Position numbers and translations under genes: made by a program. A stretch of 64,000 nt of DNA, taken from sequence record PV112478.1; one strand, given 5' to 3'. Shown one piece after another: positions 33,084-44,922 of this stretch. Every line of letters starts with the position of its first letter. Within the stretch, counting starts at the first letter, position 1. This stretch comes from Klebsiella phage LPKP23. The notes under the pieces were generated by a model. That model had not been told where the DNA came from and searched no databases. It saw only the letters and a program-made list of their open reading frames with translations.

Positions 33084-35840
33084 TTACTCTGTCTCAAAAC
33101 GGAATAGTGACAATCTAGATATGTTTACCGTACCTGTAATGTCAGAAAAAGTCGCTGCAACACGAGCAAACGCTGCGCCAACAGGTGCCCTTATTTTCAC
33201 CGGACTAGAAGCGATGAATCGTGTTGTACCGGCGGAGTAATTTGGTAGGGTAGTGTCGGAAAATACACTTCCCATCGCGGTGTTGTTACCGATTACTTGG
33301 CCACCAGATAATAATACTTTTTGATCATTGTAAAAATAAACGTATGGGGTAATACGGTTATTCCCCGTCGAGTTCAGTAGCTGCATTGCGGCAACAACCC
33401 CGAACGTATCTCCTGCTTTACAGGCAAAATACTCTGTTCCAACTAAAGTCACGTTACTCGCAGAACTTGTACCCGTTAAAGCAAGAACTTTACCTGTAAC
33501 ATCTGTTCTGTCGGCAATTACCCCTGTCATACCCGCGATGTATCCGACAGAAAATTTCGCTAACGTAGAGGAAGTACTCGTAACAGTTGTCCCAGTAGTT
33601 TCCGCACTGAAATCAAAACCGCTATTAATAATAGCGGCCGCGGACGGGACGTTAGGGTAGGGATCTTTCACATACCCACTAACCGCCACGGGTTTACCGG
33701 AAGAGTGTAAATAGAGATCTTCGGTATATGGTTTGACTTCGTGTTTGATCTCAGAGCCATTCCAATGCACTGCAACCTGGTTTCCGTTAAAGAGTGGTCG
33801 AGACGGGCTGTTGGCCAGTCCTAGTGTAGAGTCTGTTTTCTGACCAGAACGCAAACGAGGAAGGAAGTCGCAATTGGTAAAATAGACCGCACAGTTAGAC
33901 GGCGAGCCAACTACATCTAATACGTACCCATTCCAAGCTTCGGCGTGACAGTCAGTAAACTTAACTGCGTTATAACCAGACGATCCCGTAATGACTAATA
34001 TACTACCGTTAGTAAAGTCAAAGCTGCAGTTCATGAAAGAAACATCAAAACCAGGTGCTGCAAGATATACGTGATGTTCGTTGGTACCGCCAAATGTACA
34101 GTTAGTAAACGACATTCGTTCGCCGGAGTTACTGGACGTTGTAGACGGAACATTCAAACTGATACCGTTTTGTTCGAAACGACATTTAGTCGCTGAGAAT
34201 AGATAAGTATCAACGGAAGAAAACGTCAGTGCACGATAGCATTCGGTCACAACAACATTACGGAAAGAAACGTTTCTGGCGTTGGACATACTAGCTGCTT
34301 CGTTACCGATAAATATCCCAGAAAGAGTAGTTATAGCACGACCTTGCCCATCCAGTCGCAATACACCGCCATCAGCCGAAAGGTTCTCACCCTCCCAAAG
34401 ATTGACATTCGTTAAGGTGTCAGTATTTTGGAACTTGATCAGGTACGACCCTGTAAAGTTAGACGATGCAACAATGTTAACGTTACCTTTCGCAACGATA
34501 CTGATTGATGTCGGTGCGACAATTGTTGCAGATATCAGATAACTCCCGGCTGAAATGTTGATCGAAGGGCGACTGTAGAAATTAGTCCCTATTGTTAATT
34601 TCTGGACATATGCGATCGCACGTTGTAAAGGTACCGTGATATCTGTCCCTGGTTGAGCACCCCAAAATGCAACATTAATTTCTGAATTGGGGATAACACG
34701 TTCCCAATAGAAATTCCCACCAACAATGACTGTACCATAGTCTTCCGTCGCACCCCCGCCAATATGACCAATAAATTCCCCGCCGCCAATTTTAGTACCA
34801 GCTGCGTAAGATTTTACTTTAATACGTTCTCCCTCAAACCCCGGTTGACGGGACCGCAGTGAATCCACCGATTCCACGCCGTAAACCCCTTGAACGACTT
34901 GCTCTAAACTCACACCATAACTGGTATTGACCTTTGTCGCGCCCGTCGTTTGTCCCAGTGTCAAAAGAATTTCTGCTGGCGTTCCCGATACCTGTGCGGT
35001 GATGACCGACCGAGAGCCACCCAGTAAGACTTCAACAATGTCGTTAGTATTCAGCGCTTTCGAAAGGTTAATCTTCAATCCGGTGCTATCAACTTCATAG
35101 TGCTTATTCAGGACTTGTTTTGAGCCGTTGATGTAAATAGCAGGGATTGTTTTGAATGTCCACGGAGGAGTAAGTGACGTTTCTCCGCCCACCGCCGCGC
35201 CGTCATTATACAGCCACGTTACGTTGACGTAGTCGGTAATGCCAGGTTCTACTGGCGTGATAGGCGAACCCGGGTAAGGTCTCACGTAGAAGACAACGAA
35301 AGCACCCGCCGTTAACGGCCCTTTTAATTTGACTTTATTCGATAACCGATCAAATGTGTAGTTCAACCCCTTGAACTGATGACCACCGTTCAAGAACATC
35401 TCTGAGACATCGAAACAGTCGAAGGGCAATGCGATTTCCGTTTCGCCACCGTTAGCAGAACCGTTGTTATAAAGGTAACTGACGTATGACGTGTAGGAGC
35501 CGAACTTACCGTCCGCCATCATTTTTCCGGTACCGTAGATAACCGGAGTATTGTCCTTATAGACAGCCGTGGCAGAGGCACCGTTGACGTTAATAAACGC
35601 TGCAGCGTAGAATTGGCTATCGTCAGTATAGACGTAAAAGATTTCATCTTTGACAGTAGCCGCAATACCTTCTGCGAGGGTTTCAAAAGCATTTTCAAAG
35701 AGAAGATTTGATCGAAGATTATTTAACGTGGTACGATATGTTTCATTTTCTGCTCCCGCTACTGCCACTGGCAATAGAGCAGATTCTGGAACAATACCCT
35801 TACTCGAAAGTTCGGAAATTTTTCTTGTGTTATTGGCCAT
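33084..35840 (-). CDS. tail-spike/depolymerase-like protein (about 918 aa from MANNTRKISEL; track ORF extends to 35885), anchor type A
   Basis: ISELSSKG...ENAFETLAEGIAATVKDEIFYVYTDD (anchor A). Contains LRSRQPGFEGERIKVKSYAAGTKIGGGEF and beta-helix repeats. Confidence 0.7.
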   Translation of the reverse strand: MANNTRKISELSSKGIVPESALLPVAVAGAENETYRTTLNNLRSNLLFENAFETLAEGIAATVKDEIFYVYTDDSQFYAAAFINVNGASATAVYKDNTPVIYGTGKMMADGKFGSYTSYVSYLYNNGSANGGETEIALPFDCFDVSEMFLNGGHQFKGLNYTFDRLSNKVKLKGPLTAGAFVVFYVRPYPGSPITPVEPGITDYVNVTWLYNDGAAVGGETSLTPPWTFKTIPAIYINGSKQVLNKHYEVDSTGLKINLSKALNTNDIVEVLLGGSRSVITAQVSGTPAEILLTLGQTTGATKVNTSYGVSLEQVVQGVYGVESVDSLRSRQPGFEGERIKVKSYAAGTKIGGGEFIGHIGGGATEDYGTVIVGGNFYWERVIPNSEINVAFWGAQPGTDITVPLQRAIAYVQKLTIGTNFYSRPSINISAGSYLISATIVAPTSISIVAKGNVNIVASSNFTGSYLIKFQNTDTLTNVNLWEGENLSADGGVLRLDGQGRAITTLSGIFIGNEAASMSNARNVSFRNVVVTECYRALTFSSVDTYLFSATKCRFEQNGISLNVPSTTSSNSGERMSFTNCTFGGTNEHHVYLAAPGFDVSFMNCSFDFTNGSILVITGSSGYNAVKFTDCHAEAWNGYVLDVVGSPSNCAVYFTNCDFLPRLRSGQKTDSTLGLANSPSRPLFNGNQVAVHWNGSEIKHEVKPYTEDLYLHSSGKPVAVSGYVKDPYPNVPSAAAIINSGFDFSAETTGTTVTSTSSTLAKFSVGYIAGMTGVIADRTDVTGKVLALTGTSSASNVTLVGTEYFACKAGDTFGVVAAMQLLNSTGNNRITPYVYFYNDQKVLLSGGQVIGNNTAMGSVFSDTTLPNYSAGTTRFIASSPVKIRAPVGAAFARVAATFSDITGTVNISRLSLFRFETE

Positions 35841-42999: not shown

Positions 43000-44922
43000 A
43001 TGTCTAATGAAACGCAGAAAATTAGCGAGTTAACAACAACGAGTATTATCCCTGAAAAATCACTTATACCCGTAGTGGCGGATAATCTCCTGACTAATTC
43101 CGTAGATATTACCACATTACGATCCACCCTTAATTTTGAAAATGCTTTTTCTACTATAAATGAAGGCATTGCCGCAACTAATAAAAATGACCCGTTCTTT
43201 GTTTACGAGGATACTGAAAGGTTTTCTGTCGTCGGTTATGTTAATCAAGGAGGCGGGTCGTATTCCTTATTAGTCGATGGTGACGGGAAACAGGTTTCTT
43301 TTGCTACATCGAATGCAACCACTGACGCAATGAAAGAAAAAAGAGTCAGATCGAAACTCTTTATTTACGCTGAAGCAGAGGGTGTTGTCAATGACTCCAG
43401 TATTGATTCATCGGATGCTTTACAGGCACTTGTGGACAAATACAAAGGTATCAGAATAATCCTCCCACCTAGTATCATGATTAAGAAAACAATAAAGTAT
43501 TATACGCAAACTATTATTTCAGGAATTGCGGAAACGAGGAGTATTATTTGGGCTGGCGCCGGGTTCGTTGGATCCAGTATGTTTGAGCCGGCAACGACAA
43601 CAAAACAATCTGTCCAAGAACCTGATTTCTCCGATCTTACTTTAGCCGATCAAAGTGCAACAAACGTCAACCGCGGAACTTCTTCTGCGATTAATGGTAT
43701 TGAGCTTGTTGGGACGTTTGTTGCAAAAGTGGAAAATATAAAAGGTGTTCGTTTGAATGCGACGATCCACTGTAATGTCGGCACTGAGATTCAGCACACA
43801 ATGCGCCCTTATATACGTCGTATTAATGGATCGAATGTCAACTGGCATATTTTGTTCGAACCTACAACCGATGATCGATTTGCATATGGAGATGTGTATC
43901 TATCTGATATTAAAACATCTGGTAGTTGCATGAACGGAATAAGGGTTCGTGATACTGACGGTTTACAAATCAACGGCGCGGTTATTTTCCCTAACGGGGG
44001 TATTGAAATTTCTGGTCATTACCTTAATCTTTCAAATATTCATCCGTTCGAATCTAAATCTATTTTAGGTGATACTAGAATACCTGCGGCAATAACTATT
44101 CTACCCCGTGGCCCCAATACCTATAGCCGTTTTATTAATGTTCATGGCGTTGCTAGCGGGTTTGCTGGGAGATTAGCTGACACAACTATCGGGAATCCTG
44201 CGCAAACTAATAATCCCGCCCCGGGAATCTACATGGAAATGTGTTTGAACTTTAATGTTTCATTTACGGTTAATCAGTCAGCGCAAGAAGCTTTACGATT
44301 AGTAAATTGTCAAAATGGTACTTTTTCTTTCTCTAGTCTTGATGTTAATACACAGGCACTCGGTTCCGGTAAGTTACCGGAAGGTACTTACGATGTAGTG
44401 AAACTGGAAAGTTGTAAATTTATTAATGGTATTTTTACTGATATTTCCGCAAGTCGTAGATATGCGGTTTACCTCGATGATAACTGCGTAAATAATAACA
44501 TTGTAGGTACTTGTTCTCGAGGTCTCATACTCGGCCAAAACGTTAGATTACCCACTAATGGTAATTTTAATTACGTTAAAATCATTAGTGAGAATTCAAC
44601 TGGATCAACTACATTCGAACAGAAAAAACCATCTGCGAGCATTCAGACAATCTCGGATGGGTTGGCCACTCCCGAGACTCCTAATATTTCAAACAACGAT
44701 GTTATTAAATTTAACAATTCAGTAGTGACTAATGTCACTGATTTACCTAGTATTGGAAATTATCAGTCGGTCACTGTAGTGTTAAGTGATAACAATGCAA
44801 CGCGTTTAGTTGATGTCGCCAACGGCGGGAAATTTAGTCTTGGTGGGGCAAACATCATGGGAAGAGGTACCGTTTTACGTCTCTATCGCGACGATTTAAG
44901 CGGGAACCTTATTAAATATTAA
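43000..44922 (+). CDS. tail-spike protein (640 aa), plus strand, anchor type A
   Basis: Anchor A: ISELTTTS...ENAFSTINEGIAATNKNDPFFVYEDTE. A strong terminator lies downstream. Confidence 0.7.
   Translation: MSNETQKISELTTTSIIPEKSLIPVVADNLLTNSVDITTLRSTLNFENAFSTINEGIAATNKNDPFFVYEDTERFSVVGYVNQGGGSYSLLVDGDGKQVSFATSNATTDAMKEKRVRSKLFIYAEAEGVVNDSSIDSSDALQALVDKYKGIRIILPPSIMIKKTIKYYTQTIISGIAETRSIIWAGAGFVGSSMFEPATTTKQSVQEPDFSDLTLADQSATNVNRGTSSAINGIELVGTFVAKVENIKGVRLNATIHCNVGTEIQHTMRPYIRRINGSNVNWHILFEPTTDDRFAYGDVYLSDIKTSGSCMNGIRVRDTDGLQINGAVIFPNGGIEISGHYLNLSNIHPFESKSILGDTRIPAAITILPRGPNTYSRFINVHGVASGFAGRLADTTIGNPAQTNNPAPGIYMEMCLNFNVSFTVNQSAQEALRLVNCQNGTFSFSSLDVNTQALGSGKLPEGTYDVVKLESCKFINGIFTDISASRRYAVYLDDNCVNNNIVGTCSRGLILGQNVRLPTNGNFNYVKIISENSTGSTTFEQKKPSASIQTISDGLATPETPNISNNDVIKFNNSVVTNVTDLPSIGNYQSVTVVLSDNNATRLVDVANGGKFSLGGANIMGRGTVLRLYRDDLSGNLIKY

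Follow-up and report, generated by a model that had tools for sequence, protein, structure and literature searches.

The window analysed here, 64,000 nucleotides of Klebsiella phage LPKP23 (PV112478.1), comes from a phiKp24-like (Maaswegvirus/Siatvirus) Klebsiella jumbo phage. It contains six ORFs for capsule-degrading tail fibres that all start with a homologous N-terminal module, referred to here as module A (Table 1). The original prediction had placed this shared architecture at 35680-43210, an interval that holds five of the N-termini but not the sixth, that of sp1304, which lies at 28079-28417. For sp933, the true start is probably the 16th codon (Met16, window position 35840), which would give a protein of 918 aa; its orthologues are annotated from the Met corresponding to this residue.

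Table 1 Fibre genes, domains and terminator hairpins in the window.
Feature	Position	Strand	Basis or remark
sp1304 (1304 aa)	24503..28417	-	ORF with module A
sp1304 module A, aa 1-113	28079..28417	-	HMM envelope 1-113
sp1304 T4-gp10-like (XD) branching domain, single, aa 116-195	27833..28072	-	XD HMM, 116.6 bits
sp1304 body	24503..27832	-	C-terminal Peptidase_S74 intramolecular chaperone, aa 1158-1218 (Pfam PF13884, E 2e-11)
sp933 (933 aa)	33084..35885	-	ORF with module A
sp933 module A, ORF residues 16-128	35502..35840	-	HMM envelope
sp933 tandem gp10-like (XD) domains, ORF aa 132-211 and 221-300	34986..35492	-	XD HMM, 123 and 132 bits
sp933 linker and beta-helix body	33084..34985	-	Pfam Beta_helix, weak
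sp655 (655 aa)	35934..37901	-	ORF with module A
sp655 module A, aa 1-117	37551..37901	-	HMM
sp655 body	35934..37550	-	pectate-lyase-like match, weak
sp737 (737 aa)	37977..40190	-	ORF with module A
sp737 module A, aa 1-114	39849..40190	-	HMM
sp737 body	37977..39848	-	shared with KpLz-2_45 and phiKp24 only
sp852 (852 aa)	40352..42910	+	ORF with module A
sp852 module A, aa 1-114	40352..40693	+	HMM
sp852 body, right-handed beta-helix	40694..42910	+	Pfam Beta_helix, E 2e-25; also NosD
sp640 (640 aa)	43000..44922	+	ORF with module A
sp640 module A, aa 1-113	43000..43338	+	HMM, 153.7 bits
sp640 body	43339..44922	+	pectate-lyase-like match, weak
Type B N-terminal anchor, sp755 aa 1-75	32822..33046	-	gene directly downstream of sp933
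Type B N-terminal anchor, sp592 aa 1-75	24226..24450	-	gene directly downstream of sp1304
sp661 fibre, third gene of the sp933-sp755-sp661 group	28719..30704	-	body related to sp755 and sp933
Terminator hairpin between sp852 and sp640	42937..42966	+	terminator scan
Similar hairpins in other gaps	28477-28500, 30742-30772, 35897-35924, 37939-37970, 44927-44958		terminator scan

The predicted common N-terminal architecture of the six spikes was confirmed by BLASTP with composition-based statistics, in which 15/15 pairs of N-termini matched at E-values of 1e-9 to 1e-25, by 14 invariant columns in the alignment of the six copies, and by leave-one-out HMMs, with which the left-out copies scored 84-111 bits and shuffled sequences (n = 300) at most 8 bits. 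Scanning the whole window in six frames with the HMM recovered the six copies, all in the six named ORFs, and no seventh copy, even at E ≤ 10. Pairwise alignments and HMM envelopes reach residue 104-117 and give a module length of about 105-115 aa, not the roughly 70 aa first proposed. The module comprises a conserved N-terminal peptide, M-x5-K-I-S-E-L, followed by the core LR..L.FENAF ... FFVY.D..K..V..Y.N and a closing helix. The motif (F/I)F(Y/F)VY, as originally written, fits 2/6 copies; the remaining four read VFFVY or PFFVY.

The six copies are 25-40% identical to one another in protein sequence. Their third codon positions are likewise 25-40% identical and the longest common word is 15 nt, so the predicted conservation at the DNA level does not hold between paralogues; it does hold for the 5' DNA of each slot, which is kept between phages. 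Lack of DNA conservation between paralogues does not refute homology. The copies look like old paralogues with saturated synonymous sites, apparently not homogenized by gene conversion. Within slots, dN/dS was 0.06-0.28 (0.06-0.15 in all pairs but one), and module A appears to be under purifying selection across related phages. The reading that the similarity is compositional or accidental, or that it reflects recent duplication or gene conversion of no functional meaning, is refuted by the BLASTP E-values (down to 1e-25), the gap between left-out copies and shuffles, the synonymous sites of the paralogues and a dN/dS of about 0.1 between orthologues; we give it a negligible probability.

The closest syntenic orthologue of module A is 81-99% identical in five slots and 50-58% identical for sp640. 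Identity to syntenic proteins is 81-97% for sp1304 (six relatives), 67-96% for sp933 and 86-99% for sp655 (five related phages), and just 50-58% for sp640, whose overall identity with the representative protein P0058 is 67%. About 30 alignment positions are universal, and about 22 are conserved inside a slot yet differ between slots. These slot-specific positions suggest that each slot has a docking address of its own and not a plug that fits everywhere, although such conservation could stem in part from how closely the sampled phages are related overall. The "one conserved docking domain" first envisaged is replaced by six old slot-specific paralogues, each with its own same-slot orthologue.

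The proposal that bodies are swapped behind the conserved N-terminal module is supported by the relatives of sp655, by the DNA mosaic and by the occurrence of bodies behind different module types. In 4/5 of the proteins at the sp655 slot (574, 574, 760 and 742 aa), the body has no detectable similarity to that of sp655, and identity drops sharply at residue ~110-120. Over all slots, the body has often been exchanged outright, and breakpoints lie at aa ~100-120, ~175, ~215 and ~340. That of sp737 is at aa ~100 relative to MJ359 and KpZh_1, and that of sp852 at aa ~170-180, its orthologue-conserved N-terminal part extending to aa ~175 (about 40876); sp1304 and sp933 are conserved with their orthologues as far as aa ~215 and ~340, respectively. 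At the DNA level, about 4-6/6 relatives have homologues of the six genes' 5' parts (6/6 for module A of sp1304) and 0-2/6 have homologues of the bodies. Among the six relatives, the sp1304 body has almost no homologue, the sp933 body has one in 1/6 only, and none was found for the sp640 body or for sp852 past ~40900. The sp655 body is shared with one relative only, KpLz_1_41.

One module type is found on 8-13 different proteins, and the sp737-type module on at least 13 different representative proteins. Related bodies can also be found joined to different types of module: P0062, with a module of the sp737-type cluster, shares 46% identity with the sp1304 body over aa 225-1047, and P0023, with an sp655-type module, shares 50% with the sp933 body over aa 337-931. 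The original statements that the six bodies are unrelated and that similarity ends after residue ~90 do not hold for some pairs. By BLASTP, sp1304 and sp933 have ~180 aa in common, gp10-like domain included, sp933 residues 336-436 match sp852 residues 118-222 (~105 aa), and sp933, sp755 and sp661 have bodies related to one another.

Searches of other genomes, as originally suggested, detected module A on 131 of 1.84 billion representative proteins, nearly all at residues 1 to ~110 of proteins of 570-1350 aa, and in 22 phage records with 6-10 copies in each, all of them jumbo phages of Klebsiella, Serratia or Pectobacterium. The module matched no family in Pfam or NCBIfam, the Pfam families of known receptor-binding protein (RBP) anchors included, and no PDB fold match was found. 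An AF2 monomer model of the sp640 copy had a pLDDT of 88.9 and a pTM of 0.71. A bodiless 180-aa stub is retained in some metagenomic relatives; in L009 and L010 it occupies the sp852 slot. Four stub variants, 76-87% identical, each end in the slot terminator; in L009, the last codons and the stop come from a hairpin near-identical to that between sp852 and sp640. The terminator scan found 36 hairpins against 17 ± 5 expected. The stubs argue for a structural role of module A without a body.

It is very improbable that module A instead caps the N-terminus for folding or trimerisation, or acts as a spacer, having been inherited by a depolymerase family through duplication. The predicted monomer fold is confident, autonomous and ends in a helix from which a coiled-coil neck could begin, and the module always stands directly upstream of beta-helix bodies. 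However, many unrelated bodies are fused to it and different module types precede related bodies, which shows that it was not co-inherited with an enzyme family. It also persists without any body, and studies of recombinant depolymerases routinely leave out the N-terminus, taking it as the virion-anchoring part (PMC13385381).

Two of the six fibres carry additional domains after module A. In T4, gp10 is a baseplate protein whose domains D2 and D3 hold gp11 and gp12. The XD domains of sp933 and sp1304 are of the same type by sequence, whereas module A itself is not gp10-like. The sp933 pair matched PDB chains 9d83_D (phmmer E 2e-29) and 9d80_D (5e-29) and, more weakly, 6w4q, 7rfo and 5w6p, which we take to be CBA120 tailspikes; residues 111-188 of sp1304 matched 9d83_D. 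The matches to 9d83_D, 9d80_D and 6w4q fall in their gp10-like regions. Exactly three XD domains occur per genome, always in the same two slots (two in sp933, one in sp1304). The type B anchor predicted for the 592-aa and 755-aa proteins was upheld by a Smith-Waterman score of 86 against 26 ± 4.7 for shuffles (0/2000 reached 86). sp661 lacks anchor A and has no significant anchor B, its N-terminal 40 aa reaching only p ~0.03-0.04 against type B. The gene order, A with two XD domains, B, neither anchor, A with one XD domain, B, is kept in seven genomes. The match between XD number and the number of downstream fibres without module A is imperfect, since three relatives have an extra 575-aa fibre after the gene with one XD domain and MJ359 has an additional type B fibre there.

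The hyperbranched fibre set of phiKp24 (vB_KpM_FBKp24; Ouyang et al, 2022, PMC9700779) shares gene cluster, synteny and flanking genes with the window and has gp10-like domains in the same two proteins, whereas most window bodies differ. From gene order and protein lengths, we infer that sp933 corresponds to gp306 (G1), the sp1304 N-terminus to gp301 (G2), and sp655, sp737 and sp852 to gp307, gp308 and gp309 (G3). The available text of that paper ranks the fibres by how long their N-terminal structural region is and puts forward a single primary fibre; it contains no statement of a homologous ~110-aa domain common to G1, G2 and several G3 fibres, nor the word "conserved" (PMC9700779). The phiKp24 fibre network was resolved by manual segmentation of tomograms only.

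In the published phiKp24 model (PMC9700779), only gp306, the sp933 orthologue, attaches to the baseplate, and the other module-A fibres would be held, as consecutive layers at the periphery, by the gp10-like domains that gp306 and gp301 carry. The restriction of these domains to exactly two proteins fits such a hierarchy, and gp10-like domains do carry other spikes in CBA120 and G7C (PMC6872550, PMC11414711). We nevertheless consider it unlikely. Only three XD domains are available for at least nine other fibres, and it is fibres without module A that directly follow the XD-bearing genes. The fibre proposed as primary and those proposed as secondary have the N-terminal module in common, so one domain family would need to bind baseplate and XD domains alike. 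Moreover, in Serratia phage Moabite eight module-A fibres follow one another, and this cluster, within the 40 kb of the genome examined, gave neither an XD nor a type B match even with HMMER filters off, although an XD HMM built from three sequences could miss a diverged domain.

The number of slots with module A only is three to five among the genomes compared, which fits less comfortably with fixed baseplate sites. A chain tolerates such variation, and the eight fibres of Moabite, more easily, if module A trimers bound each other, stacked or chained, as the trunk of a fibre tree, instead of each occupying a baseplate site. Slot-specific residues could then encode neighbour recognition, and bodiless stubs would be kept as links that cannot be removed. 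No comparable chain of N-terminal domains is known to us, and we regard this arrangement as quite unlikely; the stub can be accounted for just as well by a docking plug that was kept or by a landing pad for recombination (PMC6872550).

Considering the observed homology, paralogy, slot orthology, breakpoints, DNA mosaic, restricted distribution and absence of a known fold or family, we favour, with a probability of about 0.7, a family of slot-specific virion-attachment domains behind which bodies are exchanged as cassettes. The ~110-aa module, a predicted small alpha/beta core plus closing helix, most likely attaches fibre trimers to the virion, as suggested by its position, by analogy and by the bodiless stubs. 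Depolymerase N-termini of this kind are regarded as the virion-anchoring part (PMC6872550, PMC9700779, PMC13385381). Each paralogue would plug, as a trimer, into its own site, either at the periphery of the baseplate or on a shared scaffold. In sp933 and sp1304, the anchor is extended by two and one gp10-like branching domains, which probably carry the downstream fibres without module A, namely sp755 and sp661 after sp933 and sp592 after sp1304.

Similar arrangements are known. The branched tailspikes of Ackermannviridae (CBA120 TSP1-4) also have N-terminal structural domains that are conserved and C-terminal receptor-binding domains that vary, and carry gp10-like XD domains in two spikes; their conserved 5' ends permit recombinational exchange, and natural bodiless variants with the N-terminal domains alone occur, among them TSP4 proteins (PMC11414711). 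Klebsiella anchor and anchor-branched RBPs, T7/K1F gp17 and G7C gp66/gp63.1 likewise have a group-conserved N-terminal anchor with horizontally swapped enzymatic bodies (Latka et al, 2019, PMC6872550). In these systems, a gp10-like docking domain follows the anchor, a secondary RBP gene with its own conserved N-terminal peptide lies directly downstream, and truncated RBPs are kept as stubs (PMC6872550). Their virions carry a single anchor-bearing RBP each (PMC6872550), whereas here the anchor has expanded to 6-8 slot-specific paralogues. The six-copy anchor represents the familiar modular-fibre logic in an unusual many-copy form. Between phages, homology arms would be provided by the conserved 5' module (with XD domains or N-cap in the fibres that have them), the terminator between genes and the module that follows, while paralogues inside one genome would be too diverged in DNA for mutual recombination. 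Host range would evolve by replacement of the enzymatic body downstream of the anchor.

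The long fibres sp1304, sp933, sp655, sp737, sp852 and sp640 (named by their lengths in amino acids) share a homologous N-terminal domain, here called module A, as predicted from the sequence. BLASTP with composition-based statistics recovered all 15 pairs with E values of 1e-9 to 1e-25, and the alignment of the N-termini contained 14 invariant columns across the six copies. In leave-one-out HMM searches, each left-out copy scored 84–111 bits, compared with at most 8 bits for shuffled sequences; together with the BLASTP results, this ruled out chance or composition as the source of the similarity. 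A six-frame HMM scan of the 64 kb recovered six copies and no others. The module spans 105–115 aa rather than the ~70 aa of the original prediction, whose interval also missed the sixth N-terminus, that of sp1304. The FFVY motif fits some copies, but in its literal form it excludes four of the six. The whole motif of the original prediction, as a regular expression, matched in full in one gene and in its core in two, and the homology is better captured by the HMM. The longest open reading frame of sp933 opens 15 codons upstream of the conserved methionine, and the true start is most likely the 16th codon, which gives a 918-aa protein and matches both the phiKp24 annotation and the representative protein P0018.

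The bodies, i.e., the remainders of the fibres, had been described as unrelated, which is true for some of them only. BLASTP revealed ~180 aa common to sp1304 and sp933, a ~105-aa stretch common to sp933 and sp852 that we interpret as an N-terminal beta-helix cap, and mutually related bodies in sp933, sp755 and sp661. The second anchor, type B, proved real in sp755 and sp592, and sp661, which lacks module A, was rejected as a third type B protein because the similarity was not significant. The C-terminal part of sp1304 contains a Peptidase_S74 intramolecular chaperone domain (aa 1158–1218), and its residues 897–1294 match the solved tail spike 9vvr_A.

Within the genome, pairwise amino acid identity among the six modules was 25–40%. 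Third codon positions were likewise 25–40% identical, which looks near saturation, and the longest DNA word common to the paralogues was 15 nt. These two values rule out recent duplication or gene conversion inside the genome; the copies are old paralogues and not a recent repeat. On the same grounds, the lack of DNA conservation that the original prediction had named as an argument against a shared module is formally found among the paralogues, but this is not a valid measure, since the relevant DNA conservation is that of the same slot (syntenic gene position) between phages.

Fibre clusters of six related phages, scanned with the module HMM, contained 5–7 copies each, always at the extreme N-terminus. 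Every module of the window has an orthologue in its syntenic slot, with the closest identities at 81–99% for five slots and 50–58% for sp640; overall, same-slot modules were 50–99% identical, while the bodies behind them were frequently replaced and often had no match. For example, the sp655 module was 86–97% identical to the modules of four proteins (574, 574, 760 and 742 aa), and BLAST gave no match at all for their bodies. Sliding identity collapsed at aa ~110–120 in sp655, ~100 in sp737, ~170–180 in sp852, ~210–220 in sp1304 and ~340 in sp933. At the DNA level, the six genes had homologues for their 5' parts in about four to six of the six relatives and for their bodies in none to two; most of sp852, sp640 and sp1304 had no DNA homologue in this set, and the sp1304 body almost none. 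The modules are under purifying selection within slots: dN/dS was 0.06–0.15 in eight of the nine pairs with estimable dS, and 0.28 for sp640 versus phiKp24. Column analysis separated ~30 universal positions (among them M1, K7-I-S-E-L11, P24, T32, L40-R41, F46, A49-F50, G56, T60, F66, V68-Y69, D71, K74, V77, Y80 and N82) from ~22 positions that are conserved within a slot but differ between slots. Hairpins resembling terminators separate almost all neighbouring fibre genes, so that every body has a conserved module on its upstream side and a hairpin followed by the next module on its downstream side. Related bodies were also found behind differing module types: the sp1304 body is 46% identical to that of P0062, whose module clusters with the sp737 type, and the body of sp933 is similar to that of P0023, a protein with a module of the sp655 type.

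The six genes belong to a cluster of eleven large tail-fibre and tailspike genes. Megablast and tblastn placed it among the Klebsiella jumbo myophages of the phiKp24 group, i.e., vB_KpM_FBKp24 (Maaswegvirus), KpLz-2_45 (Siatvirus), Centimanus, MJ359 and the 'KpLz/KpZh/KpXa' records. The sequence resembles these relatives in patches, and its synteny with phiKp24 is complete: the cluster is flanked at one end by a dUTPase gene and two DUF7941 fibres, and at the other by RNA polymerase beta genes and a DUF7941 virion protein of 188 aa. By synteny, flanks and orthologous N-terminal parts, this is the tail-fibre cluster of phiKp24-like jumbo phages (Maaswegvirus, Siatvirus). DUF7941 represents a third N-terminal type, common to the two ~690-aa fibres and the 188-aa protein, which resembles their N-terminal domain without a body and could be an adaptor or scaffold; all three are kept in every relative, Serratia phage Moabite included. 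Several further features were observed. The best sigma-70-like match of a promoter scan lies inside the divergent gap between sp737 and sp852, and divergent promoters are annotated at the corresponding position in phiKp24. A large frame of more than 1225 aa, over which GC skew becomes positive, runs past the window end and matches by position the 6.6-kb phiKp24 gene annotated 'tail fiber protein with transglycosylase activity'. The antisense frames inside sp661 and sp755 are almost certainly spurious.

Coordinates of features in the window and of module-A loci in related phages
Feature	Sequence	Position	Strand	Remark
Fibre gene cluster	window	16.9-44.9 kb		
DUF7941 protein	window	16894-18963	-	Pfam DUF7941
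DUF7941 protein	window	18980-21040	-	Pfam DUF7941
DUF7941 protein	window	44968-45534	-	Pfam DUF7941; 188-aa stand-alone
sp1304 N-terminus	window	28079-28417		module A
Antisense frame in sp661	window	29445-29906	+	153 aa
Antisense frame in sp755	window	31610-32173	+	187 aa
sp933, longest frame	window	33084-35885	-	933 aa
sp933, most likely start	window	35840	-	918 aa
Divergent gap	window	40191-40351		sp737 (-) / sp852 (+)
Sigma-70-like match	window	40221-40192	-	
Counterpart of sp852-slot stub	window	40352-42966		
Large frame past window end	window	60324-64000	+	
sp852-slot stub	L009 (metagenomic relative)	8001-8543		180 aa
sp852-slot stub	L010 (metagenomic relative)	4681-5223		180 aa
Module-A fibre genes	L011 (Serratia phage Moabite)	2238-22019		eight consecutive genes

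A word-indexed protein search returned only seven matches, mostly fragments and stubs, and the real distribution of module A needed an exhaustive HMM search of representative proteins. This search found it in 131 of 1.84 billion sequences, and in all but a few of these the match covered residues 1–~110 of a protein of 570–1350 aa. Clustering assigned at least 13 different proteins to the sp737 type, 12 to the sp655 type, nine to the sp1304 type and eight to the sp933 type. Among deposited phage genomes, 22 records carry 6–10 copies each, all of them ~270–307-kb phages of Klebsiella, Serratia and Pectobacterium. Pfam gave no family in the module region of the six full proteins or for 54 module sequences, and no NCBIfam family matched the module. 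PHROG 27731, of unknown function, matched all six modules (best E 6e-20; profile positions 3–105 of 688). PF27114 'Phage_tail_beta', precomputed for some relatives, was rejected as a description of module A; a module-bearing sp655 orthologue has no Pfam match at all. The BFVD structure search returned members of the same family only, a protein with the TSP1/Gp66 N-terminal domain scoring just E 0.04 and TM 0.30. Known anchor domains (e.g., the T7 gp17 N-terminus, the P22 head-binding domain and TSP1/Gp66) gave neither a Pfam match above threshold nor significant fold similarity, and module A showed no sequence or fold similarity to the gp10 D2/D3 domains or to the T4-gp10-like branching domains, here XD. 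Three further proteins without a Pfam family, P0101 (950 aa), P0134 and P0136, have partial profile matches (~10–100) that are internal and repeated, with up to five stretches in P0101; a beta-element akin to the core of the module may be repeated in them.

Directly after module A, sp933 carries two tandem XD domains and sp1304 one. Sequence matches of these parts to the gp10-like (XD) regions of PDB chains from solved tail fibres reached E 1e-29 for sp933 and 2e-10 for sp1304; the best chains were 9d83_D and 9d80_D (E ~1e-29), followed by weaker matches to 6w4q, 7rfo and 5w6p, which we take to be the CBA120 tailspikes TSP4 and TSP2. In every related Klebsiella genome, the XD domains number exactly three and occupy these two slots. 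The type B fibre sp755 lies directly downstream of sp933, and sp592 directly downstream of sp1304; the order [A+XDx2][B][non-A][A+XDx1][B] is kept in all seven genomes, so that the fibres without module A are those encoded right behind the XD-bearing genes, as in the KP32, G7C and CBA120 systems (PMC6872550, PMC11414711). Compared with the anchor-branched receptor-binding proteins of Latka et al. (2019), module A shows the same N-terminus conserved in the phage group with varying bodies, two of the six fibres (sp933 and sp1304) have the T4gp10-like domain downstream of the anchor expected of a branching protein, and sp755 and sp592 correspond, through type B, to adjacent secondary proteins with a different, shorter conserved N-terminal peptide.

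In the published phiKp24 model, gp306, the presumed counterpart of sp933, is the sole primary fibre, and all others hang from gp10-like domains in layers (PMC9700779). This arrangement fits the present data less well, and we regard it as unlikely: three XD domains stand against nine or more other fibres, and 'primary' and 'secondary' fibres have the same anchor, module A. Moreover, Moabite encodes eight consecutive module-A fibres of 672–1352 aa on one strand in the same genomic context, and its fibre cluster gave no XD and no type B match, even with the HMMER filters off. As these eight fibres have no XD match, attachment through module A appears to need no gp10-like domains.

In two metagenomic relatives, the sp852 slot is occupied by a protein consisting of module A and ~65 residues, with no body. 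The four variants of this stub are 76–87% identical and all end in GEGYYNTIEGG; the codons of this ending and the stop sit within the terminator hairpin of the slot, and the next fibre gene begins 49 nt after the stub. Because a bodiless anchor has been kept through such divergence, the stub suggests that module A itself serves a structural role. Comparable cases are the truncated receptor-binding proteins of KP32-like phages and the bodiless TSP4 of Limestonevirus (PMC6872550, PMC11414711). Serratia phages also encode stand-alone proteins of little more than module A, namely A0A289YMS9 (132 aa, Serratia phage 2050HW; BFVD), P0053 (128 aa) and P0079 (132 aa), which are candidates for further bodiless anchors.

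The data are best explained if module A attaches fibres to the virion and has multiplied into paralogues specific to their slots, each docking at an address of its own; we infer the attachment, its partners and the stoichiometry, and the structure model of module A is that of a monomer. Two of the module-A fibres would carry gp10-like branch points holding the type B and sp661 fibres. Enzymatic bodies would be cassettes, swapped between phages via recombination in the conserved 5' parts, and the divergence of the paralogues within a genome may guard the tandem array against ectopic recombination, a problem seen experimentally in a kuttervirus that had received similar XD sequences (PMC11414711). 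In its strongest form, to which we give a probability of about 0.3, module A would be an undescribed docking fold diversified into a positional 'address code': 6–8 paralogous anchors would each recognise a different site, on the baseplate scaffold or a neighbouring module, with no dependence on gp10-like branching, the principle by which all multi-spike phages are thought to be organised. A chain of module–module contacts among the copies seems improbable, more so than the layered phiKp24 arrangement.

Swapped bodies behind a conserved N-terminal anchor, branching through gp10-like domains and the retention of stubs are textbook features of phage receptor-binding proteins, and the phiKp24 fibre set itself is already published. 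The searchable literature contains no description of one unrecognised domain family heading six to eight fibres of one virion, of slot-specific module-A paralogues, or of module A without gp10-like domains, and literature searches on Centimanus, Maaswegvirus and the Kp24 baseplate turned up neither a structural follow-up nor an account of the module. Any structural model is now constrained by one anchor fold on 6–8 fibres, by slot-specific anchors and by an anchor without gp10-like domains in the Serratia relatives, and the question of fibre packing has become testable. If the positional code holds, the phiKp24 model of a single primary fibre needs revision. No larger sets of capsule depolymerases are known than those of phiKp24-type jumbo phages; DepoCatalog lists 14 receptor-binding proteins in phiKp24, with activity confirmed for 11 (PMC13385381). 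The junctions at aa ~100–120 in simple fibres and at ~175, ~215 and ~340 in extended ones show where natural recombination exchanges depolymerase bodies, and are points for engineering the host range of therapeutic Klebsiella phages; if the positional code is true, these breakpoints would amount to rules for putting any depolymerase at any chosen slot.
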